Positions 15,946 to 59,157 of a stretch of DNA of 64,000 bases are shown here, piece after piece. Within the stretch, counting starts at the first letter, position 1; each line of letters begins with the position of its first letter. Position numbers and translations under genes: made by a program. Origin of the DNA: Alphaproteobacteria bacterium (GTDB lineage: Bacteria; Pseudomonadota; Alphaproteobacteria; GCA-2731375); contig CBDDPY010000002.1 of the NCBI GenBank assembly GCA_965232515.1, forward strand, positions 5,312,001 through 5,376,000, in the 5' to 3' direction. The notes under the pieces are model-generated. The model made no database searches. It had not been told where the DNA came from and worked only from the letters and a program-made list of their open reading frames with translations.

Positions 15946-15996
15946 TTTCCTTAACCTTTAACGACCGGCATCGATGTGAATATTGGCCGTCAATTG

Positions 15997-16040
15997 GTAA
16001 ACATGCCGTAAACCATGTTCAGCAACGGCTAATTAACCAT
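15997..16040. promoter_or_regulatory. CtrA-like sites upstream of the hybrid kinase
   Basis: TAAA-CATGCCG-TAAACCAT (15998-16016) and half-site TTAACCAT (16033-16040) in an AT-rich spacer. Confidence 0.4.
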
Positions 16041-16105
16041 AGCGGGGAAAAGGAAGAGGGTATTTCGTCTTTGCTGATCGGGCCCGGATCGACGCGGACT
16101 TAGGT

Positions 16106-17620: not shown

Positions 17621-17929
17621 TTACGCGGTATCTCCGTTACTGCCATCCGGATTCAGATTCAGGCCGACCAGCACACGTTCCTTTTCCGTCAGGTCGCCGA
17701 TTATGGTGCGCATGGGCGGCGGCAATTCCTTGATCACCGTCGGCGTCGCCAGGATCCGGTCCTCCTCGGCCAGGTTCGGGTGCTCCAGCACGTCGATGAT
17801 CAACAGTTCGTATCGGTTATCCAGGGTGTCGCGGCAGATCTGCCGCAGTGTCGTGATCGCGTTCTCCGAGCGCTCGGTGCGTCCGGTAATGAACAGCTTC
17901 AAGACATACCGTTCCGTGTCGCTATTCAT
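17621..17929 (-). CDS. kaiB: Circadian clock protein KaiB (KaiB3-like)
   Basis: YVLKLFITG, IDVLEHPNLAEEDRILATPT, LPPP, IIGDL; stop codon abuts the kaiC ATG. Confidence 0.96.
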   Translation of the reverse strand: MNSDTERYVLKLFITGRTERSENAITTLRQICRDTLDNRYELLIIDVLEHPNLAEEDRILATPTVIKELPPPMRTIIGDLTEKERVLVGLNLNPDGSNGDTA

Positions 17930-18806: not shown

Positions 18807-18977
18807 GGATTGACCTCGAAACCGCCCGCGCGACCCCCTCGGACGGATAATGCCTCAATATTCCACTTAGTCGAGGAAAATCCTGAAATAATTCGGTAAT
18901 TTAGAACCTTCTTATACTATTCGCTTGGCGTCGGTTTGCAGACAAGCCGAGTAAAAGCGCGCGAGTTATTCACGCTA

Positions 18978-20054
18978 TTAGTCGGCGCGACGGCGCAACG
19001 TAAAGAAGAACGTGCTGCCGCCAAGCTCGTTCGCCGCCACCCAGATCGTGCCGCCATGTTCGTTAACGATTTTCTTGCAAAGCGCGAGGCCGATGCCCGT
19101 GCCCTCGCCTTCGCCACGCGGCCGCGTGCGCTGAAACATGCGGAAAATCCGCTCTCTATGCCGTTCCTCGACGCCAATGCCGTTGTCCGCGACCGAGAAC
19201 AGCCAGTCGTCGTCCTTGGTCTCGGCGGCGACATGAATGCGGGGCGTTTCCGCGCCGCGATAGGCGATCGCATTGCCGATCAGATTCTGAAACACCCGCA
19301 TGATCTGCGGTCCACTGCAGGTGATTTCCGGCAGTGGGTCCTGGCTGATGGCGGCCCCGCTTTCGTTGATTGCGGCGTTGAGATTTTCCAGCGCCGTCGC
19401 CAGCAAATTGTCGGCCTGGAACGTCTCGAACGGCTCGGGCCGCGCACCGATTCGCGCATACGACAGCAGATCGTCCATCAGATTCGCCATCCGGTCCGCC
19501 GTCGTGTCGACATGCTCGAGCAGTTCGCCGGCGTCGGCGTCGCCGGATTTGTCGTTGCGAAGGCGCAGCAGATCGATGAAGGCCTTGATGTTCTTCAGCG
19601 GCGCCTTCAAGTCGTGCGAGGCGACATAAGCGAACTGTTCGAGTTCGCGGTTCGAATGTTCCAGCGATTTGCGCTGCGTGATGTCGTTTTGAATGCCGAC
19701 GAAGGCCGTCAATTCGCCGCCGGCATCGAACACCGGCGTGATCACCACATCGTTCCAGAACGGCCGGCCGTCCTTGCGATAGTTCAGAATCTCGGCGCGC
19801 ACGCTTTCTTGCGCAGCGATCGCGTCGCGGATGCGGGTAACCGTCGCCGGATCCGTGTCCGGGCCCTGCAGGAACCGGCAGTTCGCACCCAGACAATCGT
19901 CGGCGCCGTAGCCCGTCAGGCTGGTGAAGGCGGGATTGACGAAAACGAGCGGATTGTCGGGCAGCGACGGATCGCTGATCGAAACGCCCGACAGCGTGGC
20001 TTCGACCGCCGCCTCGAAGCTGAGGCGGAGTTCCGGTCGTGCGCGATTAGGCAT
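18978..20054 (-). CDS. LOV-domain blue-light sensor histidine kinase
   Basis: DNPLVFVN, GANCRFLQ (photoactive Cys), NYRKDG, FWN, FVGIQNDIT; H-box FAYVASHDLKAPL; N, G1 and G2 boxes. Confidence 0.95.
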   Translation of the reverse strand: MPNRARPELRLSFEAAVEATLSGVSISDPSLPDNPLVFVNPAFTSLTGYGADDCLGANCRFLQGPDTDPATVTRIRDAIAAQESVRAEILNYRKDGRPFWNDVVITPVFDAGGELTAFVGIQNDITQRKSLEHSNRELEQFAYVASHDLKAPLKNIKAFIDLLRLRNDKSGDADAGELLEHVDTTADRMANLMDDLLSYARIGARPEPFETFQADNLLATALENLNAAINESGAAISQDPLPEITCSGPQIMRVFQNLIGNAIAYRGAETPRIHVAAETKDDDWLFSVADNGIGVEERHRERIFRMFQRTRPRGEGEGTGIGLALCKKIVNEHGGTIWVAANELGGSTFFFTLRRRAD

Positions 20055-40911: not shown

Positions 40912-40992
40912 ACGGCTGTTTCAACGTGAGCATCGCCTATTTATGGGGCGACGCAGCCCGTTCCTGGGTTGGGCGCGAGACGGGGCCGAGTA

Positions 40993-43900
40993 GTGTTAAA
41001 CTTGCGGTTTTTGGGCGAAATGGAGGTGGCGCAGGACGGCGTGTCGGTGTCTTTGCCGCCGTCGAAGAAGACGCGCGCGCTGCTGGCCTATCTGGCCGTG
41101 ACCGGACGGTCGCACCGCCGCGACCGTCTATGTGGTCTGCTTTGGGACATTCCCGACGATCCGCGCGGCGCCTTGCGCTGGAGTTTGAGCAAGCTGCGCG
41201 CGCTGGTCGACGACGGCGATCTGCGCCGCATTGCCGCCGACCGCGAGAGCGTGTCCTTCCAGGCCGATGCCGTCGAGATCGACGTCTTGAACGTGCGCCG
41301 CCGGCTTGGGCACGGCGTGGACACTATTCCGACCGACGAGTTGACGGCGCTGGCGACCGCGTTCCGGGGCCCCTTCCTGGAAGGCCTCGATCTGCCGGCG
41401 TGTCCCGATTTCCAGGCCTGGTGCGTCGCCCAACGCGAGGACGCGGTGCGCCTGCGGACCCGGCTGCTGGCGGCGCTGGTCGACCGTCTGGCGGAAGCGC
41501 CCGAGGAAGCGCTGGTTCACGCCCGTTCCTGGGTCGAGACCGATCCGCTGAGCCGGCCGGCGCACGGCGCCCTGTTGCGGCTGTTGATCGCGACGGGCCG
41601 CCGCATGGAGGCCGAACGGCAATACGACGCCGGCTGCCGGCTGCTGCGGGAGCTGGCCGATGACGCCGCGGACGAACTGAGCGCCGTGTGGCGGGACCTG
41701 GTGGCGTGCGCGGCGTCGGATGCCGTCGCGGCGTCGACCGCCGAGGGCGCCGCGCCGCTCGCCGCGGCCCGGTCCGAGACCTTGGTCGGGCGTCTGCGCG
41801 AACGGGCGCGGATCTTGGCGGCGCTCGACGAGACGGCGGGTCAGCGCATCGGCCGCGTTCTCCTGTTGTCGGGCGAGCCGGGCGTCGGCAAGACGCGGCT
41901 GCTGGCGGCGCTGATGGCGGCGGCGCGGCAGCGCGACGGCACCGTGCTCGACGGCTGCGCCTACGAGGCCGAAAGCGGCCGGCCCTACGGTCCCTGGATC
42001 GACGCGATCCGCCGCCTGCCGAAGAGCTATGTCGGCGAGACGCTGGGCGGCGACCTGGGTCTGCTGATGCCGGAATTCGGACAGAACGGCCAGGCCGAAC
42101 ACAGCCGCGACCGACTGTTCGGCGCCGTCGCCGAGGTGGTCGCGGCACGCGCCCACAGTGCACCGCCCGTGCTGCTCGTCTTCGACGACATACATTGGTG
42201 CGACGAGGCGTCGGCGGCGCTGTTGCACTACGTGGCGCGGCTGAATCGGCACCGGCCGGTCTTGACCGCGCTGGCGGCCCGCGACGGCGAGCTGCCCGAC
42301 AACGCGCCGGTGCAGCGGGTCTTGCGCGGCCTGCGCCACGACGGTCTGCTCGACGAGATCGCGCTTGGGCCGATGACGGCCGAGGAGACGGCGGAGCTGG
42401 TGCGGACGCTCGATCCGGCCGCCGATGTGGCTCGGGTCTATGCCGAAAGCGGTGGCAACCCGCTGTTCGCGCTCGAGGTCGCGCGGCATGCGCCGCTGCG
42501 GCGCGACGACCTGCCGCGCTCGCTGTCCGAGATCGTGCGCGACCGGATTCAAGGTCTGCCGGCGGAAGCCGGCGACGTGCTGCGCTGGGCCGCCGTGCTG
42601 GGCCAGGCCTTCAGCGTGCGGCGGTTGAGCGCGCTTTGCCCGCTCGACGTCGATGCGCTGATGCAGGCGCTCGAGACGCTGGAGCGGCATGCCCTGCTGA
42701 CCGGGGTCGATGCTGGGCGGCGGCCGGGCGGCGCTTACGCCTTCGCCCACGACCTGGTGCGCCGCGGCGTCTATACCGGGCTGTCGGAGCCACGCCGCCG
42801 GCTGATGCATTGGCGCGTCGCCGAGGCGCTGTCCGCCGCTTCCGAGACCGACGAGGCGGTCGCGGCCGAGATCGCGCACCATGCCGGATTGGCCGGCGAG
42901 GACGCGACGGCCGCGCGCGCCTGCATCGCCGCCGGCCGGCGCTGTTTGCGCCTGTTCGCCAACGGTGAGGCCTATGCGCTGGCGCGGCGCGGCATGCGCT
43001 ATGCGCGTCGGGTTGGTGAGCCCGACAGCGTCCAGCTGTTGCTGGAGCTGAACGACGTCAGCCTGACCGCGCGTCGGACCACACAGATCGAGGATACGGC
43101 GCGGCGCATCGAACGGCTGGCCGAGCAGGCCCTCGACCATGGCAGCGTCGAGCATGCCCGGCTCGGCTTTCACATGGTCTCGACCCTGCGCTGGGAGGGC
43201 GGCGACTGGACCGGCGCCGAACAGCACACCCGGCGCGCCGCCATGATCGGTCGCTCCGGCGATCCCGCGGAGCAGGTGGTGGCGATGGCCGAGACGGCGC
43301 GCTGCCTCGCCATGCTGGAGCGCGATCTCGATCAGGCCGAGGCGCTGCTGCTGGAAGCCGACGCGCTGGCCGGCCGGGCCGGCGTCGAGCCGCCGTCGAT
43401 CCCGTGCGCCCGGGGCATGCTGCGTCTGCACCAGGGTAAGCTGGGCGAGGCCGCCGAAGTGCTGTCCGACGCCCGCGCCCAGGCCCGTCGGGACGGCGAC
43501 CGCTTCGCCGAGTTCCAGGCCATGGAACAGCTCGTGATGCTGGAACTGCAGCGGCCGGACTATGCCGCCGCTGGCCTGCTTGGCGCGGACCTCGTCGCCA
43601 TCGGCGAAAAGCTGCGCGACGGCAGCGAGGCCCCGTTCGCCCATGCCCTGACCGCGCTTGCCCGTTATGGTGAGGGCTGTGCGGACGCGCTGGCCGATCT
43701 CGAAACCGCGCTCGAAGCCCTCAAACTGGCCGACGCCAAGCACCGGCTCGCCTTCGCGCTGACCCGCGCCGCCGGTATCGATTTGTCCCATGGCCGCGCC
43801 GAAGCCGCCCGCGACCGGGCCGCCGAAGCGCTGCGAATTGCCCGCTTGCTGGAGCGGCCGAGCGAGATCGCGCTCGCCCTGGTAACCTCGGCCCGCGCCG

Positions 43901-44043
43901 CCGTTGTGTTGGACGACACCGAGAGGTTTCGGCACGATGCAGCGGCCTTGCACCGGACGGCGCTGCGCGGCGTCTCGGTGCATGTGCGCCGGGCCGCCGA
44001 AGCTCTGCTGAGCGATGCCGGCGGAGGTTTGTGGACGAGGTGA
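40993..44043 (+). CDS. SARP/BTAD-type regulator with AAA ATPase and TPR-like domains
   Basis: wHTH ALLAYLA...LRWSLSKLR, BTAD, P-loop GEPGVGKT, Walker B VFDDIHW, GGNPLF, FAHDLVR. Confidence 0.9.
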   Translation: MLNLRFLGEMEVAQDGVSVSLPPSKKTRALLAYLAVTGRSHRRDRLCGLLWDIPDDPRGALRWSLSKLRALVDDGDLRRIAADRESVSFQADAVEIDVLNVRRRLGHGVDTIPTDELTALATAFRGPFLEGLDLPACPDFQAWCVAQREDAVRLRTRLLAALVDRLAEAPEEALVHARSWVETDPLSRPAHGALLRLLIATGRRMEAERQYDAGCRLLRELADDAADELSAVWRDLVACAASDAVAASTAEGAAPLAAARSETLVGRLRERARILAALDETAGQRIGRVLLLSGEPGVGKTRLLAALMAAARQRDGTVLDGCAYEAESGRPYGPWIDAIRRLPKSYVGETLGGDLGLLMPEFGQNGQAEHSRDRLFGAVAEVVAARAHSAPPVLLVFDDIHWCDEASAALLHYVARLNRHRPVLTALAARDGELPDNAPVQRVLRGLRHDGLLDEIALGPMTAEETAELVRTLDPAADVARVYAESGGNPLFALEVARHAPLRRDDLPRSLSEIVRDRIQGLPAEAGDVLRWAAVLGQAFSVRRLSALCPLDVDALMQALETLERHALLTGVDAGRRPGGAYAFAHDLVRRGVYTGLSEPRRRLMHWRVAEALSAASETDEAVAAEIAHHAGLAGEDATAARACIAAGRRCLRLFANGEAYALARRGMRYARRVGEPDSVQLLLELNDVSLTARRTTQIEDTARRIERLAEQALDHGSVEHARLGFHMVSTLRWEGGDWTGAEQHTRRAAMIGRSGDPAEQVVAMAETARCLAMLERDLDQAEALLLEADALAGRAGVEPPSIPCARGMLRLHQGKLGEAAEVLSDARAQARRDGDRFAEFQAMEQLVMLELQRPDYAAAGLLGADLVAIGEKLRDGSEAPFAHALTALARYGEGCADALADLETALEALKLADAKHRLAFALTRAAGIDLSHGRAEAARDRAAEALRIARLLERPSEIALALVTSARAAVVLDDTERFRHDAAALHRTALRGVSVHVRRAAEALLSDAGGGLWTR

Positions 44044-44048
44044 CAAGC

Positions 44049-44960
44049 ATGCCCGAAGCCGAACGCCAACATATCGCGGTTCGCCGCCTGCACCCGTTGT
44101 TCGCCGCCGAGGTCACGGGCGTCGATCTCACGGCGCCGCCCACCGATGCGGTCTTCGCCGAGATCGCCGCGGCCTTCGATGAACATTCGGTGCTGGTGTT
44201 TCCCGGTCAGCGGCTCGACGACAAGCAGCAACTGGCCTTCGCACGCCGCTTCGGCGACCTCGAGGTGCTGCAGAAGGGCGCCATCGGTGAGCGCACGCTG
44301 CTGGCGGGCATCAGCAACGTCGATCCCGAGACCGACGAGATCATTCCGGCCGACGATCCGCGTCTGTTGCGGCAGTACAGCAACGAGCTCTGGCATACCG
44401 ACAGCTCGTTCAAGCGCGTTTCGGCCAGGGCCTCGCTGCTGCACGCCCGAGAGGTGCCGCCGGCGGGCGGCGACACGTCGTTCGCCTGCATGCGCGCCGC
44501 CTGGGACGCGCTGCCGGCAGCGAAGCAACAGCTGTGCAAGGCGTTGGTCGCCGAGCACAGCTTCGCCTACAGCCGCGGGCTGACCGTGAAGGAGGACTTC
44601 CTGACGCCGGAACAGAAGGCCGAGGTGCCGCCCGTGCCGCAGGCTCTTGTCGTCGCCAACGCCCGCAACGGCCGCAAGGCGCTCTACGTCGCCAGCCACG
44701 CCTCGCACATTCTGGGCTGGCCGCGCGCGCGGGGCCGGGCGCTGCTCGACGAGCTGACGGCGCACGCGACCCGGCCCGAGTTCGTCTACACGCACCGCTG
44801 GCGGCAATGGGACCTGGTGATGTGGGACAACCGCGCCACCATGCATCGCGGCAGCGCCTACGACTACCGCCGCCACCGCCGCGTCATGGTCCGCGCCACC
44901 GTCTCCGGCGACGTGGCCACCGTCAGCGCCGACGTGGCGGCGCGCGTGGCGGCAAGCTAA
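44049..44960 (+). CDS. TauD/TfdA family 2OG dioxygenase
   Basis: WHTDSS, WDNRATMHR; start could be GTG 44031 or 44040. Confidence 0.92.
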   Translation: MPEAERQHIAVRRLHPLFAAEVTGVDLTAPPTDAVFAEIAAAFDEHSVLVFPGQRLDDKQQLAFARRFGDLEVLQKGAIGERTLLAGISNVDPETDEIIPADDPRLLRQYSNELWHTDSSFKRVSARASLLHAREVPPAGGDTSFACMRAAWDALPAAKQQLCKALVAEHSFAYSRGLTVKEDFLTPEQKAEVPPVPQALVVANARNGRKALYVASHASHILGWPRARGRALLDELTAHATRPEFVYTHRWRQWDLVMWDNRATMHRGSAYDYRRHRRVMVRATVSGDVATVSADVAARVAAS

Positions 44961-48866: not shown

Positions 48867-48902
48867 CGTCCGTCGATGTTCGGGCAACCGCGTTGATGTC
48901 GC

Positions 48903-49427
48903 TCAATTACCGCCGACGCGGGCCAGTCGGTCGAGGTCATCCCAAGCCATGCGGATGCCTTCGATCAGCCGGCCGCCGACCGGTTTGCGCGTGCGCGCCG
49001 CCGCGCGGCCGTTCAGGCGTTCATAGAAACGCACCGCGCCGCTGTTCTCGGCGAAGACCCAGAGGGCGGCGCTATGGAACCCCAGTTGCGGCAACCGCCG
49101 CGCGGCCTCCGCCAATAGTCGCTGGCCGATTCCGCCGCCACGGCGGTCGGGATCGACATGCAAATTGTCGATGTAACCGGTGTTGGGATCGTCCGCGTCG
49201 GGCCAAACCGCGATGAAGCCGATGATGGCGTCCTGCTGCTCGGCGACGAGGATCAGGCCGTCCGAATGGTCCCGCGCGAACACGCCACGCCAGTGGTCCG
49301 CCGTCTCCTCCGCCAGCGCGCCGTCCATGTAAGCGTCGTCGACGATGCCGCGATAGGCGCTGCGCCAGCTCCTGACATGCAGATCGGCAATCGCCGCCGC
49401 ATCGGTCACGTTTGCGTCACGTATCAC
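48903..49427 (-). CDS. GNAT acetyltransferase
   Basis: LHVDPDRRGGGIG, N.GAVRFYERL. Confidence 0.92.
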   Translation of the reverse strand: MIRDANVTDAAAIADLHVRSWRSAYRGIVDDAYMDGALAEETADHWRGVFARDHSDGLILVAEQQDAIIGFIAVWPDADDPNTGYIDNLHVDPDRRGGGIGQRLLAEAARRLPQLGFHSAALWVFAENSGAVRFYERLNGRAAARTRKPVGGRLIEGIRMAWDDLDRLARVGGN

Positions 49428-49531
49428 CTGTTACTCCGTACTGCCGACAACACTGATGAGGCAGCTACGGAACCTAGTGGGGACCCGGCGTCCTGGTCGA
49501 GCGGTTTTTGCCGGCGGCCGCTGCCCTTAGC

Positions 49532-50686
49532 TCACCATTGGTTGTCCATGGGGAACTTGAGCACCCCATAGGGCGGCGATTTCGGCCGCTCGACGATGAT
49601 CTCCGTACCCGACAGGCTGTCCAGGAAGGCGACGACGTCGTCGATCTCGGCGTCCGTCAGGCCGAGCGGCTTGATCTTGTCGGACTTGGTGCCGAACGGC
49701 TCGTCCTCGCCGCCCTTGTTGTAGAATTCGACCACCTCGTGCAGGTCGAAGAACACGCCGTTGTGCATATAGGGCACGGTATAGGCGAGGTAGCGCAGCG
49801 GCGGCGTGCGGAACTTGCCGATGTCGGCGATGTCCTTGGTCGCGCGGAAACGGCCCGGATCGCGGTCGAGATGCAGGTAGGCCGCTTCCTCGTGCCCGGA
49901 CGAGCGCATGCGTTCGCGGAACGCGATCTGGCGCTGGGCATTTTCGGTGAAGGCGGGATTGGTGGGCAGGCCGATATTGTGGAAGTCCTGATCGGTCAGC
50001 AACGGTCCGCCATGGCAGGCGATGCAGCCGGCCTTGCCCTCGAACAGCGCTTTGCCGCGCAGCGCCGCTTCCGACATGGCGTCCGCCTCGCCGCGCATAT
50101 GGCGGTCGAACGGGCTGTCGTCCGAGATGACGGTGCGCTCATACGCCGCGATCGAGGCCAGCGCCTGGTCATAGTTCGGCGCGGCGTCCCAGACCTCCCG
50201 GAACAGGCGGACATATTCCGGGACCTGCTTCATGCGCTCCTCGGCCAGCACCTTCTTCAGGTTGCCGGCGAGCGCGCCCGAGATCGCCGAATGCGCCTGC
50301 GCCTCCATCGTCGACGCCGACGAGGTCCAGAACCAACCCTTGGTCAGATAGCCCGAGTTCACCACGGTCTGCGAGTTGCGCCAGTGCATGGTGCCGGGAT
50401 AGCCGCGGCCGAGGTCGTTGCCGTCACCCCAGCCGAGCTTCGGATCATGGCAGTCGACGCAACCGATCGACCCGTCGCCCGAGAGACGCGCGTCGAAGAA
50501 CAGGTGCTTGCCAAGGGCTATGTTCGCCTCGGTCATCGGGTTGTCCACGGGGATGGGCATGGGCGGCAGTGCGGCCAGCGGTTCGGGGCCCGCGTTGTCG
50601 GCGGCGGCGAACCGGGTGACGGCCAGCGCCGCCAGCGCGGCGAGCGCGATCGCGCCGAACAGGCTGTTGCGAAGACGTCGGGTCAT
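49532..50686 (-). CDS. Diheme cytochrome c peroxidase superfamily protein (MauG/IdrP-like)
   Basis: Signal peptide, LGKHLFFDARLS, CVDCH, CIACH, KFRTPPLR, PYMHNG...EFY. Confidence 0.92.
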   Translation of the reverse strand: MTRRLRNSLFGAIALAALAALAVTRFAAADNAGPEPLAALPPMPIPVDNPMTEANIALGKHLFFDARLSGDGSIGCVDCHDPKLGWGDGNDLGRGYPGTMHWRNSQTVVNSGYLTKGWFWTSSASTMEAQAHSAISGALAGNLKKVLAEERMKQVPEYVRLFREVWDAAPNYDQALASIAAYERTVISDDSPFDRHMRGEADAMSEAALRGKALFEGKAGCIACHGGPLLTDQDFHNIGLPTNPAFTENAQRQIAFRERMRSSGHEEAAYLHLDRDPGRFRATKDIADIGKFRTPPLRYLAYTVPYMHNGVFFDLHEVVEFYNKGGEDEPFGTKSDKIKPLGLTDAEIDDVVAFLDSLSGTEIIVERPKSPPYGVLKFPMDNQW

Positions 50687-50697
50687 GGGCGCGCTCC

Positions 50698-51459
50698 TCA
50701 CGCTTTCATGTCGAGGGACAGCTCGTGGGTCTCGCCGGCGGCGAACGTGACCTCGCGCGTGACTTCGCCGAGCAGCGGATGCCACATCACGAGCTCGTAG
50801 CTGCCGGGCGGTATGTCGCCGATATCGAAGCGGCCGTCGGCGCCCGTTGCGGCGAGATAGGGGTGGCTGGCGGTGTAGATCCAGGCCGACATCCAGTTAT
50901 GGGCGTCGCAGTCGATCTCGACCACCGTGCCCCGGCGCATCTTGAGGGTCGCCACGTCGGTCTGCCCCGCCGCCGGTTGCGCGATGTTGAACATCGTGCG
51001 CCGGGCCCGGCCGATCTGCTCGTAGGCGTGGATGTTGTGCAGCAGCGGATCGTGATTGACGACCGTGAGATCGGCGCCCTTCGCCGCGACCTGCACGAAC
51101 GGCTGGAACAGACAGGCCTTCTGATCGATCTTCGGCGTGGTCATGCCCGCGTCCCAGGGCTTGCCGGCGGCGACCTCGCGCAGGCCGACGACGCCGTCTT
51201 TCAGCGCGCCGTCATCCGTCACAGTCAGCGGATTCGGATTGACGTCGCCGACGCCGCATATGTGGGAGTCCTTCGAGATCAGCACGGCGTCCTCGGCCGG
51301 CGGCTCGCCCGTAAAGCGCAGGACGCCCGTGAGACGCGCGCCATCTTTCACGTCGGCTTCGGTATAGGCATTGCCGAGGCGCGGCAATCCAACGGCGCCG
51401 AGGGCGACAACAGCACCGCCGGCGAGGATCGCCCGGCGCCGGGTAAACGACTTGATCAC
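50698..51459 (-). CDS. Tat-exported cupredoxin-like protein with carboxypeptidase-regulatory-like domain
   Basis: TRRRAIL Tat motif, LHNIH and CDAHNWM; GTG start overlaps the upstream TGA. Confidence 0.8.
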   Translation of the reverse strand: MIKSFTRRRAILAGGAVVALGAVGLPRLGNAYTEADVKDGARLTGVLRFTGEPPAEDAVLISKDSHICGVGDVNPNPLTVTDDGALKDGVVGLREVAAGKPWDAGMTTPKIDQKACLFQPFVQVAAKGADLTVVNHDPLLHNIHAYEQIGRARRTMFNIAQPAAGQTDVATLKMRRGTVVEIDCDAHNWMSAWIYTASHPYLAATGADGRFDIGDIPPGSYELVMWHPLLGEVTREVTFAAGETHELSLDMKA

Positions 51460-52211
51460 TGCTTTTCCTCCTGCGAAGCATCCGCTTCGGTTCTGAGCGA
51501 CAAGAGATATTCGGTCAGCGCCCACAACTCGTCGTGGGAGGCCCGTCCCGCGTAGGACGGCATCGGTGAGCCGTCGAGCCCGGTATAGAAGCGCGTCCAG
51601 ATTTCTTCCGGGGAATCGCCGCCCTTGTAGCTGCCGCTCACCAGGCTGGCGGCGAAGGTGCGGCGCCGGTCGTCGCCCTTCATCGTCAACGAGGAGGGGC
51701 CGTCGCCATGGCCCGTTTCGCCGTGGCAGGCGGCGCACTGCAGTCGCTCATAGACCTCACGGCCGAGCGCGATGTCGGCGGTTTCCGGCCGCGGCGGCAC
51801 CGTGACCGGCGTGCCTTCCACATCCATCCAGGCAAACGTGCGCACGACCTCGACCAGCGCCCAGCGATCCTTCTCCGACAGGGCCGCGAAGCTTGGCATC
51901 TGCGCGCCGTTCGAGCCGGCAAGGCCGTGCGTGATCGTGTCGAACAGGTCCCGCGCGGTCGGGAACTGGCCGGTCGGCGTCGAGCGGATCTTGAACACGC
52001 CGAGCGTCAGGTTGCGCGGCCGCTGGGCCAGATACATGGCGCCGGGTCCGTTGCCGTCGCCCTCGACGCCGTGACAGACGGCGCACTCCCGGGCATAGAG
52101 CTCCTGGCCGTGCGCCAGCAGGTCCGGATCGGGCGCGGTATATTGCGCCGCCGCCGGTCCGGCGAGCGCCGCCAAGGCGGCGCCAACCAACAGAATGGAT
52201 GCACGCTTCAT
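51456..52211 (-). CDS. Diheme c-type cytochrome
   Basis: Sec signal, CAVCH, CAACH, MPSF and MPSY axial Met motifs. Confidence 0.92.
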   Translation of the reverse strand: MKRASILLVGAALAALAGPAAAQYTAPDPDLLAHGQELYARECAVCHGVEGDGNGPGAMYLAQRPRNLTLGVFKIRSTPTGQFPTARDLFDTITHGLAGSNGAQMPSFAALSEKDRWALVEVVRTFAWMDVEGTPVTVPPRPETADIALGREVYERLQCAACHGETGHGDGPSSLTMKGDDRRRTFAASLVSGSYKGGDSPEEIWTRFYTGLDGSPMPSYAGRASHDELWALTEYLLSLRTEADASQEEKQ

Positions 52212-52224
52212 GGCGGGCCTCCCG

Positions 52225-54837
52225 TCAACCGATGCTGCGTGGAATGAAGGACATGGCGGCATCGACGCTCTTCAGCGGCGTCTCGCCGGCCTTCTCGACC
52301 CGGCCCTTGCCAATCTTGTAGTTGTAGACGGCCGACACCGGATCGGTGACGGCCGAGACGACGGTGTTCGAGTTCTGGCCGGGATAGAACGCATAGGTGT
52401 AGGTGACGCCCGGCGCCACTTCGTCGGTCGGATAGGCGACCAGCGACAGCACGCCCTTGCTCGTGCGCCCGAGCTGGTCGACCACGGCGTCGTTAGTGAC
52501 GTGCACCAGGTCGCCGGCCTCAATCCCGCGGGCCTCGGCGTCGGCGTGGTTGATGAACAGCCAGTTCATCGGCCAGCGCTCGCGGATATAGGGCTTGCGC
52601 AGGTCGTCGTACATGGTCTGCCAGATGTGGTTGATCCGGCCGTTCATGACCCAGAGCTCGTCGCCCCGGGGTTTGAACTTCTCGAAGATCGGCTCGGCGA
52701 TGCGCCAGTCGCCGCGCATGAAGATCGCCCTGCCCGACTTCGTCTTGTACTTGGTGACGTTCCAGTTGTGGTTTTCGGGATCGGTGATCGTCTTGTCGTG
52801 CAGCCGGATCGTGCCGACCAGCTTGCCGTCGACCAGGCGGGCCGGAAGCTGGATGCCCGTGGTCGACAGCGCGCGCAGCTGCTCGTGGGCGGAGAGCCCA
52901 TTGGCGCGGGCGAACGCGATCAGCTTGGTATAGTCGTAATGGCCGCCCTTCGACCGCGCGGCGGCCTCTTCGAAGACTTCGTTGCCGTCCCGCCAGGCAA
53001 AGCCCTCGTAACCCATCTTGGTGGCGATCTGACCGACGATCCACCAGTCCGGCTTCGCGGAGCCGGGCGGATCGTAGAACTTGGAATAGATCCGCAGTCG
53101 CCGCTCGCCCTGCGCCCGGGTCAGGTCGGTCTCGCCCCAGGTGGCGGCCGGCAGGACCAGGTCGACATATTCGGTCAGGTCGTTCGGATAGATCTCCTGC
53201 ACCGCCAGCGCCATGCCGCCGGCATCCATCCGCGCCTTCAGCCGGGCGATGATCTCGTCGCGGTCCAGGCTGTCGACCTGGATCTCATGGCCGCGCGTCA
53301 GACCGTGGATCTTCTCCCGCAACGCCTGGCCCGAGGCCATCGACGTCACCCAGGTATGGCCGATGACATGGCAATAGCGGAGATTGCCTTCCATGGCGTG
53401 CCGGTCGAAATGTAGCGGCAGCTTCTCGCCGGTTTTCTCGCCGGTGATCGGATCGACGAAGACGTCGGTCGACTTCTTTATCGGATAGCCGGCGCCTTTC
53501 ATCATGCCGCGTTGATGGCCGCCGAGACGGCCCAGGATGCGGCCCGGCCGGCCCGAGGCGCCGTTGATCAGCGCCAGCGCCGAATACGAGCTGGTGTTGG
53601 GGAAATTGAACGACCAGTAATTGCCCTTCTCGAGAAAGAACGACGCCTTCGGCCGCAGCTTGCCGCGCGGCTTCGCCAGCATCTCCGCCGCCAGCTTCAG
53701 CTTCCCGGCCGGCACGCCGGTAATCCCGGCGGCCTTTTCCAGCGTGTAGGCGTCGTCCGCCAGGACGAACGCCTTGTAGTCCGCGAACGGGCCGCCATAG
53801 CGCTTGCGGCGCCACGAGGTCTCCTTCGCCATGTCGTCCTCGGACACCGTGTATTCGGCGATGAATTCGCGGTCCTCCCAGCCCTGTTCCAGGATGTAGC
53901 GGGCGATGGCGTTGTTCAAAACGCTGTCGGTGCCGGGCGTCAGCTGCAGGTGCAGGCCGCCCGAGCGCTTGGCATAGGCCGCCGTCGGGCTCTTGCGCGG
54001 ATTGACCTGGATGATCTTCGCGCCGCCCGGCGCCATCCATTCGGTGAACAGGATGGTGTGGTTCTCATACGGGTCCGAGCCCGAGATCATGATGACGTCG
54101 GCATCCGTCACGTCCGGATAGCCGTATGAGAAGCCGTCGACGCCCGCGTCATCGACGCCGGTGGCGTCGTTTGCCGCGGTGTTCTTGTCGTGCTCGGCGC
54201 CGGCCGGCGTGCCGATGGCGCCGTAGGCCCATTTGGTCAGGGCGTAGGTGTTCTCCCAGAACTGGTACGAGTAGTACTTGATGCCCCAGGCCTGCTCGCC
54301 CCAGGTGTCGATGGCGTAGCGGCCGAGCTCGGCCGCGATCGTCGTCGCGTCCTCCCAGGAAATCGCGTGCAGCATGCCGCGCGACCGGACCATCGGCGTT
54401 TGCAGGCGTTCGGCCGTCGGGCGTTTCGGGTTGTAGGGCTTGAGGCCGAGCGTGCCGCCCCGGACCGAGTGGTTGCCCTTGCGGTTCACCGCCGTTTCGC
54501 CGTCCGGCACGATGACGACGTGGTGCGGCTCGCCCTTGTACTGCACGATATTGTGCATGTTCGGGCTGATCCACTTGCCCGACAGCGGCCCCGTCGGGAA
54601 CTGTTCTTTGAAAGCATTTTCGTCCGGTTTCGCGCCGCCCTCGGCGTGATACGGCCAGCGGTAGACCTTGTAGGCGCAGCCGACGATGCAGTACTCGCAG
54701 GCCGTCGGCAGGACGTCGGCATTCGCCGGCGGGACCGGCACCTCGTCCACGGGCACGTCGTAGGTGCCGGTGTCGAGCGACGGCGTTCGCGCCGCCAGCA
54801 GGAACTCGCGGCGTGATTTGTCGGAGCGGTCGGTCAT
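52225..54837 (-). CDS. DMSO-reductase family molybdoenzyme large subunit, AioA/IdrA clade
   Basis: CEYCIVGC...NHSVRGG [3Fe-4S] motif, EKGNYW, GRLGGHQRG, DLVLPAA, GERRLR.Y.KFYDPPG..KPDW, NGRIN..WQT; start after GGGAGG. Confidence 0.93.
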   Translation of the reverse strand: MTDRSDKSRREFLLAARTPSLDTGTYDVPVDEVPVPPANADVLPTACEYCIVGCAYKVYRWPYHAEGGAKPDENAFKEQFPTGPLSGKWISPNMHNIVQYKGEPHHVVIVPDGETAVNRKGNHSVRGGTLGLKPYNPKRPTAERLQTPMVRSRGMLHAISWEDATTIAAELGRYAIDTWGEQAWGIKYYSYQFWENTYALTKWAYGAIGTPAGAEHDKNTAANDATGVDDAGVDGFSYGYPDVTDADVIMISGSDPYENHTILFTEWMAPGGAKIIQVNPRKSPTAAYAKRSGGLHLQLTPGTDSVLNNAIARYILEQGWEDREFIAEYTVSEDDMAKETSWRRKRYGGPFADYKAFVLADDAYTLEKAAGITGVPAGKLKLAAEMLAKPRGKLRPKASFFLEKGNYWSFNFPNTSSYSALALINGASGRPGRILGRLGGHQRGMMKGAGYPIKKSTDVFVDPITGEKTGEKLPLHFDRHAMEGNLRYCHVIGHTWVTSMASGQALREKIHGLTRGHEIQVDSLDRDEIIARLKARMDAGGMALAVQEIYPNDLTEYVDLVLPAATWGETDLTRAQGERRLRIYSKFYDPPGSAKPDWWIVGQIATKMGYEGFAWRDGNEVFEEAAARSKGGHYDYTKLIAFARANGLSAHEQLRALSTTGIQLPARLVDGKLVGTIRLHDKTITDPENHNWNVTKYKTKSGRAIFMRGDWRIAEPIFEKFKPRGDELWVMNGRINHIWQTMYDDLRKPYIRERWPMNWLFINHADAEARGIEAGDLVHVTNDAVVDQLGRTSKGVLSLVAYPTDEVAPGVTYTYAFYPGQNSNTVVSAVTDPVSAVYNYKIGKGRVEKAGETPLKSVDAAMSFIPRSIG

Positions 54838-54848
54838 TGTCGCCTCCC

Positions 54849-55445
54849 TCAACCGCGCATCAGCCGCCGGCCTGCGCCGGCCGGCTCCCGAGCGCCGTCG
54901 GCGAAGGCGCCGCCTTCCAGATTGTTGCGCTGGCCGTAGATCAGCCCGATCACGCCGATCGCGACGATGTCGTCGCCGTCCAGCCGCAGGACGATCTGGG
55001 GCAGGTTCTGCGTCGCCTGGGCATGGACGGGAATGCCGCCCTTGGTCAGATCGAAGACCGAGAAGTGCATCGGACACGGCCCCAGTGCCTTGGTGTCGTG
55101 CCGATAGCGCCCGCGCAGCGGACCGCCCATATGCGGACAGAGCGTCGAATAGGCGACGATGTCGCGAGCGGGGCCGACGCCACGGCGCGCCTCCGTGCCC
55201 AGCTTCACCAACAGGTTCGGCTGCTGCTTCAGGGGATAGGCGAAGGCGACCGGCTCGCCCTCGGCCAGCTCGGAAGCTTTCGCGATACGCAGCTCGGGAT
55301 AAATATCTCGGCTGAGGTCGGCCGCGCCGGTGGCCGCCTCGACGATATCGGCCGGCGCGAATGTCGTCGCCAGGGCGCCGCCGGCCACGCCTTTCAATGC
55401 CAGCCTGCGGCCGAAGCAGTAGTCCGATTTCGATTGGTCCGTCAT
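54849..55445 (-). CDS. Rieske [2Fe-2S] small subunit, AioB/IdrB-like, Tat signal
   Basis: GRRLALK, GVGP..DIVAYSTLCPHMG, CPMHFSVFD, ATQNLPQI, GLIYG. Confidence 0.93.
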   Translation of the reverse strand: MTDQSKSDYCFGRRLALKGVAGGALATTFAPADIVEAATGAADLSRDIYPELRIAKASELAEGEPVAFAYPLKQQPNLLVKLGTEARRGVGPARDIVAYSTLCPHMGGPLRGRYRHDTKALGPCPMHFSVFDLTKGGIPVHAQATQNLPQIVLRLDGDDIVAIGVIGLIYGQRNNLEGGAFADGAREPAGAGRRLMRG

Positions 55446-55603
55446 GACGCATCCCTCGTTCGTTTGGGTGCCGGTTCGGGGTCGTCGTCCGTTCCGCGCG
55501 CCCGCGATTGCTTCGGCCGAAGGGCCCTGATGCTGCCTAGAACGGCGCCTTATCGGGATGGGTTCGTGACTTTTGTTAACCATGTTCGCCGGCAACGAAG
55601 TCG

Positions 55604-55629
55604 TGAACTCATCGCCGGTCGGGCGCGTT
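55604..55629 (+). promoter_or_regulatory. Candidate ECF-dependent autoregulatory promoter
   Basis: TGAAC-N17-CGTT about 100 bp upstream of the ECF sigma gene. Confidence 0.5.
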
Positions 55630-55726
55630 ATATGTTGCTGGAAACCGTTTCCCGACCGTCGCGCCCACCGGCTGAATCCGGCGTTTTTGGCGCGGCGGTT
55701 TCGTGCGCTGAAAGACGTTTTCGCCA

Positions 55727-56344
55727 ATGCTGGGTTTCACCGAGGCACGCCGCCGAAAGAAGTTCGAAGCGATGACGAAACCGCATCTCGATGCCCTTTA
55801 CCGGACCGCCCGGCGCATGACCGGTCACGCGCAGACGGCCGAGGACGTGGTGCAGGAAACCTGCCTGAAGGCCTATCGCGGTCTCGACGGATTTCAGGCC
55901 GGCACCAATTACGGCGCCTGGTTGTTCCGCATCCTGACCAACACTTGCATCGACTGGCGGCGGCGTCGCGGTATCGGCGAGACCGTCGACCTGCACGCGC
56001 TGCCCGACGCCATGCTGGGCGGCGATGTCGGCTCGGCGACGCAGGACCGGCGCGAGCCCGATCCCGAGGCGCACCTGATGGTGGCGGAGTTCCGCCGCGA
56101 CGTCATGGGCGCCATCGACCGCTTGTCGCCGGAGTTGCGGATGGTCGTGCTGCTGGCCGTGTTCGAGGAGTACAGCTACGCCGAGATCGCCGAGGCCGTC
56201 GATTGCCCGATCGGCACCGTGCGCTCGCGGCTGAACCGCGGCCGCCAGCAACTGCAGGCCGAGCTTTCGGCCTATCGTACCGTCGAGTTGGTCCCGGTAT
56301 CGCCCGACCGGGCGGCCAGGGGCGGAGGCTGTGGCGAGCCATGA
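55727..56344 (+). CDS. ECF RNA polymerase sigma factor
   Basis: AEDVVQET, AWLFRIL.N, SYAEIA...IGTVRSRLNRGR. Confidence 0.95.
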   Translation: MLGFTEARRRKKFEAMTKPHLDALYRTARRMTGHAQTAEDVVQETCLKAYRGLDGFQAGTNYGAWLFRILTNTCIDWRRRRGIGETVDLHALPDAMLGGDVGSATQDRREPDPEAHLMVAEFRRDVMGAIDRLSPELRMVVLLAVFEEYSYAEIAEAVDCPIGTVRSRLNRGRQQLQAELSAYRTVELVPVSPDRAARGGGCGEP

Positions 56345-57288
56345 GCAAGATGACCTGCGAGCAGGTGCGGCAGCGCCTTTTCGACTACCTCGACGGCATC
56401 GGCGAAGCCGGCGAACGCACCGCGATCGCCGCGCATCTCGACGGTTGTCCGGCCTGCACCGCCGAGCTGCGCGCGACCGGCGGGATGGAGAAACGCATGC
56501 GACAGGCACTCGCCGGCGACCGCGCGCCGGACGGCCTTTGGGACCGGGTGATGGCGTCCATCGACGCGGACGACGGGGCCAAGCCGCGCGGCTGGCGCAC
56601 CGGCTGGCCGGCGATGGCCGTGGCGGCGGCGGTCGCCGCCCTGCTGATCGCCGTCGTCGGCCTGATCTCGCTGCCGGGGCAGCAGACGGTGCAGCCGACG
56701 GCGCTGGTGGTCGAGCCGGTGAACGACTTCATCACCTATCGCCTGAGCGGCCGGCCGCTCGACGTCGAAAGCGCCGATCCGGCGGCGCTGGCGCAATGGT
56801 TCAGCGGCAAGACCGAGGCCGGCGTGCCGCGCGATATCCCGGCCCCGGCCGGCTTCCGGCTGGTCGGCAGCCGCCTCTGCTATTTCCTCAACCGCCGGCT
56901 TGCGGCTCTGATGTATCAGTCCGAGGCCGGCTTGCTGTCGCTCTACGTCATGTCCGACCACGACATCGTCATGCCGGAAGCGCGCTTCGACGCCGCCGTC
57001 GGCCGTGCGCTGTCGAGCCATCGCGTCAACGACCACAACAGCCTGATCTGGCGCAACGACGGCCGGGTCTACGTGCTGGTCTCCGACCTGCCCAAACCCG
57101 ACATGCGCCGCTTTCTCGAAGGCATGCAGGCGGCGATGCGGGACGCGCCGGCGGGTTATCCCCGGGTCATGACGACGATGGTGGTCAGCACGACCGGCGT
57201 CAGCGCCAGCGCCGGGATGATCAATCCGGCGAAGCCGAAGCAGGCGGCGGCGAAAATCCACCCCATCACGCCGTTGGCGATGAAATAG
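56341..57288 (+). CDS. Zinc-finger (HxxxCxxC) transmembrane anti-sigma factor
   Basis: TCEQ...HLDGCPAC, one TM, periplasmic domain; ATGA overlap with the sigma gene. Confidence 0.88.
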   Translation: MSKMTCEQVRQRLFDYLDGIGEAGERTAIAAHLDGCPACTAELRATGGMEKRMRQALAGDRAPDGLWDRVMASIDADDGAKPRGWRTGWPAMAVAAAVAALLIAVVGLISLPGQQTVQPTALVVEPVNDFITYRLSGRPLDVESADPAALAQWFSGKTEAGVPRDIPAPAGFRLVGSRLCYFLNRRLAALMYQSEAGLLSLYVMSDHDIVMPEARFDAAVGRALSSHRVNDHNSLIWRNDGRVYVLVSDLPKPDMRRFLEGMQAAMRDAPAGYPRVMTTMVVSTTGVSASAGMINPAKPKQAAAKIHPITPLAMK

Positions 57289-57410
57289 TACTTCGCGTCC
57301 GGCGGACCGAGCAGGGCGTCGCGGAGGAACCAGCCCAGCACTGGGATCCGGCACAGCCATAAAATGGCCGCCGGCGGCCGTGCGCGATCCTCCGCCACGT
57401 CCGCCGCCAT
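57156..57410 (-). CDS. Small membrane protein
   Basis: RIPVLGWFLRDA..GP..AKYYF, two TM; starts 1 nt after the PCuAC stop. Confidence 0.7.
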   Translation of the reverse strand: MAADVAEDRARPPAAILWLCRIPVLGWFLRDALLGPPDAKYYFIANGVMGWIFAAACFGFAGLIIPALALTPVVLTTIVVMTRG

Positions 57411-57411
57411 G

Positions 57412-57936
57412 TCAGTTGGTCTTGTGCTTACCGTGCGACATGCCGTGCCCGGAATGGTCCATCTTACCGCCGCCCGAACCGCGCGCGCCGACCGGCTCGA
57501 CGTCGAACTCGAGATCGATCGATCCCGCTTTCTCGAAGGTCAGCGTCGCGGTCACCGGATCGCCTTCGACCAGCGGCGCTTTCAGCTGCATGAACATCAC
57601 GTGATAGCTGCCGGGCTTCAGCTCGACGGTCTCGCCGGGCGGAATCTCCAGGCCGGCGGGCAGGCGGCGCATGCGCATCACGCCGTCTTTCATGGCCATC
57701 TCGTGGATCTCGATCTTGCCGGCGAAATCGGCCGCGCCGGCGACCAGCCGGTCGGTCTCGCTGCCCATGTTCTTGATGGTCATGTAGCCGCCCCCGACCT
57801 TGGCGCCGCCGGGCGTCGCCCGCGTCCAGGGATGATCGATCGCCAGCGAACCGATCTTGTAGTCGTGCGCCATCGCGGTCGTGACAAACGCCGAGAGGCT
57901 AAGGGTCAAAGCGGTAAGGATGCGGATATAGGTCAT
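57412..57936 (-). CDS. Periplasmic copper chaperone PCu(A)C
   Basis: EIHEM......MRM...LKPGSYHVMF motif, His/Met-rich tail. Confidence 0.94.
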   Translation of the reverse strand: MTYIRILTALTLSLSAFVTTAMAHDYKIGSLAIDHPWTRATPGGAKVGGGYMTIKNMGSETDRLVAGAADFAGKIEIHEMAMKDGVMRMRRLPAGLEIPPGETVELKPGSYHVMFMQLKAPLVEGDPVTATLTFEKAGSIDLEFDVEPVGARGSGGGKMDHSGHGMSHGKHKTN

Positions 57937-58002
57937 TGCTCACTCCAATCGTCTGATCGACAGGCCAGGGCCGTCCGCGTCGGCCGCGGCGGCGTCGTCT
58001 TG

Positions 58003-58389
58003 TCAGATGGCGTGATTGGAGGGTGGCGCGCGGGCTTCGGCCGTGCTGGTGGCGAGGCGGCCGGCCAGAACGACGCCCGCGGCGGGCGCCAGGACGATCT
58101 GACGGAAGCTCGGCGCCGGCATGGCGGGCAGGGCCACCGGCCCAAGACCGGGCGCCGCGGTCAGCCGGCAGGCCTCGCACTCGGGGTTGTCGATGTCGCT
58201 ATGGCCGCCGGTCAGACCGTTTTGGGTACAAAGGACCGGCGTCGTGCCGTCGGGCAGGGTGAAGGCGCTCAGGTCCGGCGCGGCCTGCGCCGGCCGCGGC
58301 TGATGCCCGGCGACCAGCAGCAGGCTCGCCAGCGCGTAGAGCGCGCTGACCGCCAGCCGGATTTGTCTGTTGCGACACCGTCTCAACAT
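58003..58389 (-). CDS. DUF2946 (CruR/CutF-like) leader protein
   Basis: Signal-like N-terminus, CEAC, C-terminal ARAPP. Confidence 0.85.
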   Translation of the reverse strand: MLRRCRNRQIRLAVSALYALASLLLVAGHQPRPAQAAPDLSAFTLPDGTTPVLCTQNGLTGGHSDIDNPECEACRLTAAPGLGPVALPAMPAPSFRQIVLAPAAGVVLAGRLATSTAEARAPPSNHAI

Positions 58390-58463
58390 GGGCGCAGCAT
58401 GCCACGTCCGGCGCACAGGTCAAAGATGGTCCGGCCGCTGCGGCATCAGGCCGCACGAAGATC

Positions 58464-59157
<694 letters not shown>

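Follow-up and report, generated by a model that had tools for sequence, protein, structure and literature searches.

A conserved Aio/Idr-family molybdoenzyme operon that groups, by phylogeny, with a sister lineage of the iodate reductases

The full 64,000-nt stretch of alphaproteobacterial DNA analysed here, called the window below, contains an operon of five minus-strand genes (55445-49532) that encodes a molybdoenzyme of the Aio/Idr family. Its large subunit belongs neither to the arsenite oxidases (AioA) nor to the canonical iodate reductases (IdrA) in phylogenetic reconstructions. It falls instead in a well supported clade of its own, the sister group of the latter. The gene set recurs in related loci together with a gene pair for an extracytoplasmic function (ECF) sigma factor and its anti-sigma factor. 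Apart from the gene set itself, no conserved feature is more distinctive than this pair, which went unmentioned in an earlier reading of this DNA made from the letters alone (the sequence-only reading). Our tentative reading, to which we give somewhat short of an even chance, is that the operon encodes an Idr-like reductase with stress-type regulation whose substrate is iodate or a related oxyanion.

The five genes of the operon, in gene order, are as follows.

54849..55445, minus strand: Rieske [2Fe-2S] small subunit, AioB/IdrB homologue, 198 amino acids (aa), with the twin-arginine leader GRRLALKG
52225..54837, minus strand: large catalytic subunit with molybdenum-bis(pyranopterin guanine dinucleotide) (Mo-bisPGD), 870 aa, with an N-terminal [3Fe-4S] motif; member of the Idr-like sister clade
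51456..52211, minus strand: predicted periplasmic dihaem cytochrome c, 251 aa, CcoP-like, with a Sec-type leader, two CxxCH motifs and two Pfam cytochrome c domains
50698..51459, minus strand: predicted type 1 blue-copper cupredoxin, 253 aa from the ATG at 51459, with the twin-arginine-like leader TRRRAIL
49532..50686, minus strand: dihaem cytochrome c peroxidase (CCP), IdrP1 orthologue, 384 aa, with Pfam CCP_MauG (130 bits) and a cytochrome c domain

The sequence-only reading had described a tightly packed operon of these genes, and all five open reading frames (ORFs) were recovered on the minus strand where it had placed them, with their domains identified by Pfam and NCBIfam. The spacing between them, derived from the gene coordinates, is 11, 13, -4 (an ATGA overlap) and 11 nt.

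Phylogenetic position and active site of the large subunit

The large subunit contains the Pfam domains Rieske_3 (3Fe-4S), Molybdopterin and Molydop_binding. Its cluster motif is C47-x2-C50-x3-C54, with S123 following 69 residues further on, and corresponds to CX2CX3CX~70S, the [3Fe-4S] motif of IdrA (PMC10149662). The small subunit has a Pfam Rieske domain, scores 136.5 bits on NCBIfam TIGR02694, and has cluster motifs (CPHMGGPL...CPMHFSVFD) that match up with those of IdrB and AioB in the alignment. It is 47-52% identical to the IdrB of canonical loci over 129-138 aligned residues. The operon therefore has the two subunits expected of an IdrA/IdrB enzyme, a Mo-bisPGD subunit with the [3Fe-4S] motif and a Rieske subunit with a twin-arginine translocation (Tat) leader. 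Rieske subunits of the window clade also have an extra C-terminal stretch of about 20 residues (window 54849-54914, minus strand), ending in MRG in four of them, which is absent from IdrB and AioB.

The large subunit scores 428.9 bits on TIGR02693, the NCBI equivalog model for AioA, against a cutoff of 359.05. This explains the arsenite-oxidase names given to its relatives, which are labelled 'arsenite oxidase large subunit' in the source records. The score is far from the level of true AioA: the proteins of Bosea and Thermus HB8 reach 1284.9 and 1467.7 bits, whereas the IdrA of Azonexus hydrophilus NCP973, an isolated iodate respirer according to PMC13455634, scores 425.6 and an IdrA-type protein of Sedimenticola 439. 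Pairwise identities follow the same pattern. The window protein is 43.3% identical to the Azonexus IdrA, 41-47% identical to canonical Idr members in general, 28-30% identical to the AioA of Bosea and Thermus, and 28-31% identical (tblastn) to annotated plasmid-borne AioA genes. Among solved structures the nearest are those of the NT-26 and A. faecalis AioA, which reach only 263-283 bits, and the alignment to the best of these (283 bits) spans residues 30-856 of the window protein.

Trees of the large subunit were anchored by the idr locus of Azonexus NCP973, by the AioBA loci of Bosea and Thermus HB8, and by loci and proteins of the collection. In the Azonexus locus (L022), genes for a kinase and a sigma-54 regulator lie upstream of those for two peroxidases, a Rieske subunit and a large subunit. 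The Bosea locus includes arsJ and an aioXSR-like trio of PhnD-type binding protein, kinase and sigma-54 regulator. Three trees were calculated, a quick LG+G4 tree of 82 rows, a quick posterior mean site frequency (PMSF) tree of 57 rows, and a careful PMSF tree of 57 rows with bootstraps. In the careful tree the window clade (10 rows) and the canonical Idr clade (25 rows) are each supported at 100/100, their union as sisters at 97/94, and the AioA clade (Bosea, Thermus HB8, the aioA-type protein of genome G043, 4 representatives) is set apart at 100/100. Both quick trees have the same topology. All loci in which a pair of peroxidase genes precedes the Rieske gene, that of Azonexus among them, fall in the 25-row clade, as does a Nitrospirales-type subclade. 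Azonexus NCP973 is the only validated IdrA in these trees, which do not include those of Pseudomonas SCT, Denitromonas IR-12 and the expressed marine metagenome-assembled genomes (MAGs). The window clade is thus the sister of the clade defined by validated IdrA and idrABP1P2 synteny and lies outside it. In the protein database the window clade is likewise discrete, with 43 clusters at 58-91% identity and the next at 54% or less.

The sequence-only reading had asked for such a tree and had named two outcomes that would overturn it, namely that the large subunit nests within bona fide AioA, or that it is a canonical IdrA with a second idrP elsewhere. Neither is what was found. The window protein is placed outside AioA and beside the canonical IdrA clade, and the genome has one gene of this molybdoenzyme family and no second idrP-type gene.

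The active site agrees with this placement. Eight second-sphere residues of NT-26 AioA are described as highly conserved in PMC10448176 (D169, H199, R201, E207, K413, R447, H451 and E453; NT-26 numbering, mapped here through a residue-numbered alignment to the solved AioA structure). Of the residues listed there, the window protein keeps four (H199=H216, K413=K404, R447=R437 and H451=H441), changes two conservatively (R201 to K218, E207 to D224) and changes two non-conservatively (D169 to S190, E453 to R443); it does not have the AioA set. The motifs reported in the sequence-only reading were all located, including the CX2CX3C motif with its serine described above. HDKNTAAND begins at 216 and EKGNYW at 403, and they align opposite HNRPAYNSE and EKG[IL]IW of AioA. 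In an alignment of 60 rows from all clades, the motifs HDK..D, EKGNYW and GGHQ[RC]G of the window protein equal those of the canonical Idr rows and hold seven of the eight second-sphere positions, all but D169. Azonexus has GGHQCG where the other canonical rows have GGHQRG. The window protein therefore has second-sphere motifs of the IdrA type, but these are common to the wider non-AioA superclade and do not discriminate within it. The replacement of the funnel-mouth glutamate by arginine (E453 to R443) could suit an anionic substrate. The exception is an archaeal subclade of the Idr-like superclade (P0090, P0125 and their neighbours), with Thermoplasmata and Nitrososphaerales among its source names, where HHAPA replaces HDK and EKG[VL]YW replaces EKGNYW.

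Residues 1-25 of the large subunit (window 54763-54837, minus strand) form an extension with a twin-arginine-like motif that lacks a hydrophobic core. R10, R17, P19 and D22 are fixed in 51 window-clade rows, and these columns are mostly gaps in the IdrA and AioA rows. The extension may be a vestigial Tat motif or a chaperone-binding motif.

A genuine arsenite (or antimonite) oxidase, as automatic annotation has it, is highly improbable. The score above the TIGR02693 cutoff, the names of relatives, and the shared architecture of a [3Fe-4S]/Mo-bisPGD subunit with a Tat-Rieske partner speak for it. The same model scores a validated IdrA as it scores the window protein and scores two AioA far higher, only four of the eight second-sphere residues are kept, and the tree separates the protein from AioA at 100/100. 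Gene context points the same way. Pfam scans of 49 further ORFs of the window (21 + 28) revealed no ars or aioXSR-type gene, as the sequence-only reading had said of the window, and genome G043 has a separate aioBA-type pair besides its window-type operon. Judged from sequence, the large subunit is not an arsenite oxidase and its database name is a mis-annotation; the enzyme represents a distinct Aio/Idr-family lineage that is sister to the iodate reductases and is not canonical IdrA.

The conserved module and its putative regulation

A scan of the species-genome collection recovered nine related loci in addition to the window. Together with metagenomic loci there are 16 other loci with a large subunit of the window clade (L001-L009 from species genomes; L043-L047, L051 and L055 from metagenomes), at 60-91% identity to the window protein in best-segment tblastn matches. 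Counts of the module refer to the 14 loci, window included, in which the DNA extends far enough. The cytochrome and the cupredoxin lie downstream of the large subunit in all 14, the peroxidase follows in 12, and in 12 the region upstream of the Rieske gene holds a gene pair for an ECF sigma factor and a zf-HC2 anti-sigma factor (the pair was not found in L001 and L009). The sigma pair has the same direction as the operon in the other loci and is inverted in the window. The synteny survey proposed with the sequence-only reading thus reveals a conserved gene set that is no accident of this genome. The window-type system travels as a seven-gene module, and its clade is rare among species genomes, occurring in marine and groundwater Proteobacteria according to record titles.

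Other genes near the operon do not belong to the module. No counterparts of the GNAT, EamA, PCuAC, ORF137 and ORF201 neighbours were found in the other related loci. ABC1 was considered as a further member and rejected, as only weak ABC-ATPase matches occur, at varying positions, in L002, L004, L006, L008 and L014. The window has a PCu(A)C copper chaperone gene just past the anti-sigma gene (57412-57936, minus strand) without a homologue in the other related loci. Locus L005 (14281-19044, a groundwater MAG) has a Cox11-like copper chaperone directly after the cupredoxin instead, and the cytochrome part of a FixO-cytochrome c fusion encoded there is 39% identical to the window dihaem cytochrome. 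Molybdate-transporter-like genes and moaA occupy the peroxidase position in L008. In locus L009 (9348-13603; genome G049, a Rhodospirillales MAG) the large-subunit gene is broken into four pieces. It contains in-frame stops, and about 1.9 kb of additional DNA separates residues ~435 and 502. The neighbouring cupredoxin and peroxidase genes are frameshifted too. These broken genes reflect either a decaying copy or assembly errors.

The sequence-only reading had reported a single dihaem peroxidase, and the operon indeed has one. In a peroxidase tree of 36 rows, which mirrors the tree of the large subunit, the canonical pair splits into an idrB-adjacent clade and a distal clade, and the window-type peroxidases (99*) fall inside the former. 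The idrB-adjacent clade is identified as IdrP1 because consecutive accessions for Azoarcus DN11 place P1 next to idrB (PMC10149662). Only one further dihaem peroxidase is encoded in the genome, 28% identical and 2.2 Mb away, and the adjacent IdrP1 and IdrP2 of canonical clusters thus have a single IdrP1-type counterpart here. The window-type operon has retained only the IdrP1 orthologue.

The fourth gene was called cupredoxin-like in the sequence-only reading. Pfam alone gave this no support, the only match being a weak one to CarboxypepD_reg at the C-terminus. H141, C184, H187 and M190 are invariant in an alignment of 11 cupredoxin homologues, and C-x2-H-x2-M forms a short, amicyanin-like loop. 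The AlphaFold model (pLDDT, the predicted local distance difference test, 84.7) matches amicyanin, plastocyanin and pseudoazurin in a Foldseek search of the PDB (63 matches at E <= 0.001). The invariant ligands together with these matches therefore indicate a type 1 copper protein with flanking beta-sandwich parts, in which the modelled fold and the predicted His, Cys, His and Met ligands agree.

Copper proteins of this family are not confined to the window clade. Homologues are encoded after the large subunit in L015 and in two loci of the Nitrospirales type, L010 and L048. Among 24 same-family genomes searched, ten carry a 44-46% homologue of the large subunit and none carries the window type. 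Five canonical loci of relatives were fetched, from four of the ten and from one genome of another family. All are CCP-CCP-Rieske-Mo clusters, and four of the five (L036-L039) have a cupredoxin homologue of 35-38% identity about 2.5 kb downstream. The idea of an own heme-copper electron chain in the sequence-only reading is therefore correct in part: the cytochrome and the cupredoxin are constant members of the operon (14 of 14 loci), but such a chain is not unique to it. A protein of about 750 aa with HEAT repeats follows the relatives' canonical idr clusters (checked with Pfam in L035, L036 and L038), and in L036-L039 the cupredoxin comes after it. In L038 the cupredoxin is followed by a Cyt_bd_oxida_I-like membrane protein of about 720 aa and by cytochromes c, and L010 also has a bd-like protein and a plastocyanin-like gene.

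The regulatory genes and candidate promoters of the window are as follows.

55727..56344, plus strand: ECF sigma factor, SigH/SigE-like, divergent from the operon, with Pfam Sigma70_r2 and Sigma70_r4_2
56341..57288, plus strand: membrane anti-sigma factor with a predicted zinc-binding anti-sigma (ZAS) domain (Pfam zf-HC2); its start overlaps the sigma stop (ATGA)
55541..55565, minus strand: ECF-type promoter-like motif GAAC-N17-CGTT, ~95 nt before the Rieske start codon
55605..55629, plus strand: ECF-type promoter-like motif GAAC-N17-CGTT, ~95 nt before the sigma start codon

The best NCBIfam scores are below the cutoffs for both proteins, with 139.7 bits (PRK12533) and 128.1 bits (TIGR02947) for the sigma factor and 41.8 bits (antisig_RsrA) for the anti-sigma factor. 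A search of protein clusters for the latter returned generic zf-HC2 clusters only. Its cytoplasmic, predicted zinc-binding domain has invariant C6, H32, C36 and C39 in the alignment (C-x25-H-x3-C-x2-C), the zinc-ligand spacing of RsrA-type factors. One predicted transmembrane helix connects this domain to a conserved periplasmic domain with invariant residues of its own, including C180. The mean pLDDT of the AlphaFold model is 68.8, with 77-92 in the periplasmic part, and the latter has weak Foldseek matches to RseB/MucB (best E 5.8e-4, about 95 columns).

Of 11 other loci, 8 have the motif GAAC-N16-17-CGT[TC] upstream of the sigma gene, and the 281-nt divergent intergenic region of the window has it twice, once per strand. 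In total 10 of 13 upstream regions contain it, whereas 1000 shuffles gave a mean of 0.19 and a maximum of 3; its background within the same loci is 0.03 per 250 nt. The motif upstream of the window sigma gene closely resembles those of L002 and L004 (GAACTC-N14-CGTTATAGG). A longer pattern was defined after the sites had been viewed, so its chance figure is circular. The motif before the sigma gene makes autoregulation likely, and the sigma factor may drive both its own gene and the enzyme operon. A scan for sigma-70 promoters and terminators inside the operon gave no more hits than shuffled sequences do, with 2 sites resembling promoters and 4 resembling terminators.

Possible function and alternatives

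These features suggest the following model for an Idr-like reductase. The enzyme would be a Tat-exported periplasmic heterodimer of the Mo-bisPGD/[3Fe-4S] subunit and the Rieske [2Fe-2S] subunit. Electrons of the respiratory chain (cytochrome c pool) could pass through the dihaem cytochrome c, the blue-copper protein or both to the Rieske subunit, and from its centre through the [3Fe-4S] cluster to molybdenum, which would abstract an oxygen atom from an anionic, high-potential oxyanion. Iodate, or a halogen oxyanion of similar chemistry, would be the most likely substrate. With electrons from the same carriers, the IdrP1-type peroxidase could clear a peroxide or oxidant by-product, as has been proposed for the peroxidases of Idr (PMC10149662 and PMC8692401). 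The ECF sigma factor would be held by the membrane-spanning zinc anti-sigma factor and act through the GAAC-N16-17-CGT[TC] promoters, the pair turning the module on upon a periplasmic or thiol-oxidising signal. With ECF control, the operon would be an inducible periplasmic stress or auxiliary electron-sink module and not a classical anaerobic respiratory operon.

The sequence-only reading had proposed a variant iodate reductase or a new oxyanion or halogen redox system. The sister-clade position, the IdrA-type residues, the one IdrP1 and the conserved gene set are in keeping with that proposal, but the cytochrome and copper chain is not unique to this operon.

Several observations weigh against an Idr-like reductase of iodate. 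The first group concerns the enzyme itself. At 37 positions no fewer than 95% of 51 window-clade rows share a residue that occurs in at most 5% of 22 canonical rows, and 4 of the 37 fall in the conserved N-terminal extension (motif SRREFL.AARTPS.D), which is missing from the other clades. At N259, Q576, S658 and L799 canonical Idr and AioA mostly agree and the window clade differs; F410 is also specific to the clade relative to canonical Idr, with AioA varying there. The second group concerns gene content. According to the peroxidase tree there is no IdrP2-type copy at the window operon, and 2 of the 14 loci (L005 and L008) lack the peroxidase altogether. In its place L005 has genes for a Cox11-like protein, COX1 and a FixO-cytochrome c fusion (a cbb3-type oxidase), which read more naturally as an electron-accepting end. 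Control by an ECF factor also differs from the sigma-54 and two-component genes found beside canonical idr (also PMC10149662). Finally, a 44-46% paralogue is present in 3 of the 10 genomes with a window-type operon (G000 and G041-G049), namely G042, G043 and G046. It was confirmed as a canonical CCP-CCP-Rieske-Mo (idrP2P1BA) cluster in G042 and G043, and G043 holds the aioBA-type pair as well. Co-occurrence with canonical idr argues against plain redundancy with iodate respiration.

The main rival to the Idr-like reductase is an enzyme that works in the Aio direction, oxidising a reduced periplasmic substrate and passing the electrons through the dihaem cytochrome c and the cupredoxin to the peroxidase (and so to H2O2) or, in some hosts, to a cbb3-type oxidase. 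We consider this possible but doubtful. A cupredoxin or cytochrome c that donates to a CCP is a standard bacterial route. The oxidase that replaces the peroxidase in L005 fits this view, since both are cytochrome-c-oxidising terminal enzymes, and so do the canonical idr clusters of G042 and G043, the 45% paralogue of G046, the fixed residues of the window clade, and the existence of both directions, Aio and Idr, in the family (PMC8692401). Against it, the second-sphere residues and the peroxidase resemble those of Idr, the oxidase is adjacent in one locus of 14, the same cupredoxin family stands beside canonical reductase clusters, and no neighbouring gene indicates a candidate substrate.

An unlikely variant of this direction is a 'reverse Idr', to which we assign a slim chance. 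Iodide, hypoiodite or another very high-potential donor would be oxidised to iodate, with electrons leaving through the cupredoxin and cytochrome c to H2O2 (by the IdrP1-type peroxidase) or to O2 (by the cbb3-type oxidase of L005), and the ECF switch would sense oxidants. Only the co-occurrence with canonical idr, the clade-specific residues and the one oxidase adjacency support it, and nothing in the amicyanin-like copper loop points to the exceptionally high potential that this chain would need. If it were true, the operon would be a candidate for the as yet unidentified way in which organisms form iodate in sea water.

The substrate of a reductase need not be a halogen compound. The enzyme could act on some other oxidised periplasmic compound (another oxyanion or a stress-oxidised biomolecule) in ECF-induced envelope repair or detoxification, which we regard as unlikely. 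The ECF sigma factor, the RsrA-like zinc spacing of C6, H32, C36 and C39, the weak RseB/MucB-like periplasmic fold, the fixed residues of the clade and the co-occurrence with canonical idr could all be accommodated by it. The sister-group relation to the iodate reductases, the same second-sphere set, and the IdrP1 orthologue kept in 12 of 14 loci favour the Idr-like reductase of a halogen oxyanion over it, and the neighbouring genes suggest no other substrate.

Public RNA-seq data were rejected as evidence of transcription. Contigs of two libraries are 95-99% identical to window 48900-58500 at a depth of about 5, but the flanks are covered as evenly as the operon, which shows neither transcription nor condition, and the contigs carry no strand or level information. 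As these libraries are labelled with another organism, the contigs point to a close relative of this bacterium in the samples. Two polyA libraries had 0 reads for the operon.

No description of the sister clade or of this operon variant was found in the searchable text of the literature; the clade may stand unlabelled in published figures or PDF supplements. The text supplements of PMC8692401 and PMC13455634 do not mention Pelagibius, Kiloniell-, Rhodovibrion- or Minwuia. Annotation pipelines label the enzyme 'arsenate reductase (azurin)/arsenite oxidase', and surveys with hidden Markov models (HMMs) would count it as idrA or aioA; by phylogeny or gene context it is neither. If it reduces iodate, estimates of the iodate-reducing potential of ocean and groundwater overlook a lineage with stress-type ECF control instead of respiratory control. 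If it has another activity, it would add a third function to a family known for only two, in a five-gene, expressible system for which there is a cultured carrier whose record is titled Pelagibius sp. Alg239-R121 (88% identical).

Two further features of the window are unrelated to the operon. A clock-like KaiBC module lies at 14353-20054 on the minus strand, with KaiB at 17621-17968 and KaiC at 16106-17620 (Pfam). Adjoining genes encode two histidine kinases, a hybrid one at 14353-15945 and a PAS one at 18978-20054. At 40969-44960 on the plus strand, the gene for a 1024-aa BTAD/AAA_16 (SARP/LuxR-like) regulator overlaps the start of a TauD-family dioxygenase gene.

Comparison with known systems

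The closest known system is the iodate reductase IdrABP1P2, whose named carriers are Pseudomonas sp. SCT, Denitromonas iodatirespirans IR-12, Azoarcus sp. DN11 and Azonexus hydrophilus NCP973; its genes have been expressed in E. coli (PMC13455634). Shared with it are the Mo-bisPGD/[3Fe-4S] subunit with CX2CX3CX~70S, the Tat-Rieske subunit, the motifs HDK..D, EKGNYW and GGHQRG, a dihaem peroxidase of the IdrP1 type, and an equal score on the AioA HMM. The window clade differs in being separate, at 41-47% identity, and without IdrP2. Its peroxidase is downstream and not upstream, the dihaem cytochrome c and the cupredoxin lie within the operon, ECF sigma and anti-sigma genes stand in place of sigma-54 and two-component genes, the large subunit has the twin-arginine-like N-terminal extension, and in some genomes canonical idr co-occurs.

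The arsenite oxidase AioAB of Pseudorhizobium banfieldiae NT-26 and Alcaligenes faecalis (PDB 4aay and 1g8k) resembles the window enzyme in architecture and cofactor motifs, in the Tat signal of the Rieske subunit for export, and in having soluble cytochrome c or a cupredoxin (azurin) as redox partners, putative ones in the case of the window. The differences are an identity of about 30%, four of the eight second-sphere residues (including E453 to R and D169 to S), and a context in which no aioXSR or ars genes were found.

The Nitrospirales-type cluster (L010 and L048) has the order CCP, Rieske, Mo subunit, cupredoxin, CCP. As in the window operon, the Mo subunit is directly followed by a cupredoxin, which belongs to the same family, and then by a peroxidase, and a peroxidase of the IdrP1 type is present. 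Unlike the window operon it has a Mo subunit that branches with canonical Idr, two peroxidases, and no dihaem cytochrome c between Mo subunit and cupredoxin; no homologue of the sigma and anti-sigma factors was found at these loci.

The regulatory pair combines features of two known types. It resembles the SigR-RsrA pairs with ZAS proteins in that the sigma factor scores best on SigH/SigE-type models, although below the curated NCBIfam cutoffs, and in that the anti-sigma factor has the predicted ligands C-x25-H-x3-C-x2-C. The periplasmic fold of the anti-sigma factor recalls RseA-RseB and MucA-MucB, the match being weak (E 5.8e-4, model pLDDT 68.8). Unlike either type, the window anti-sigma factor is predicted to join the ZAS and periplasmic domains in one membrane protein.

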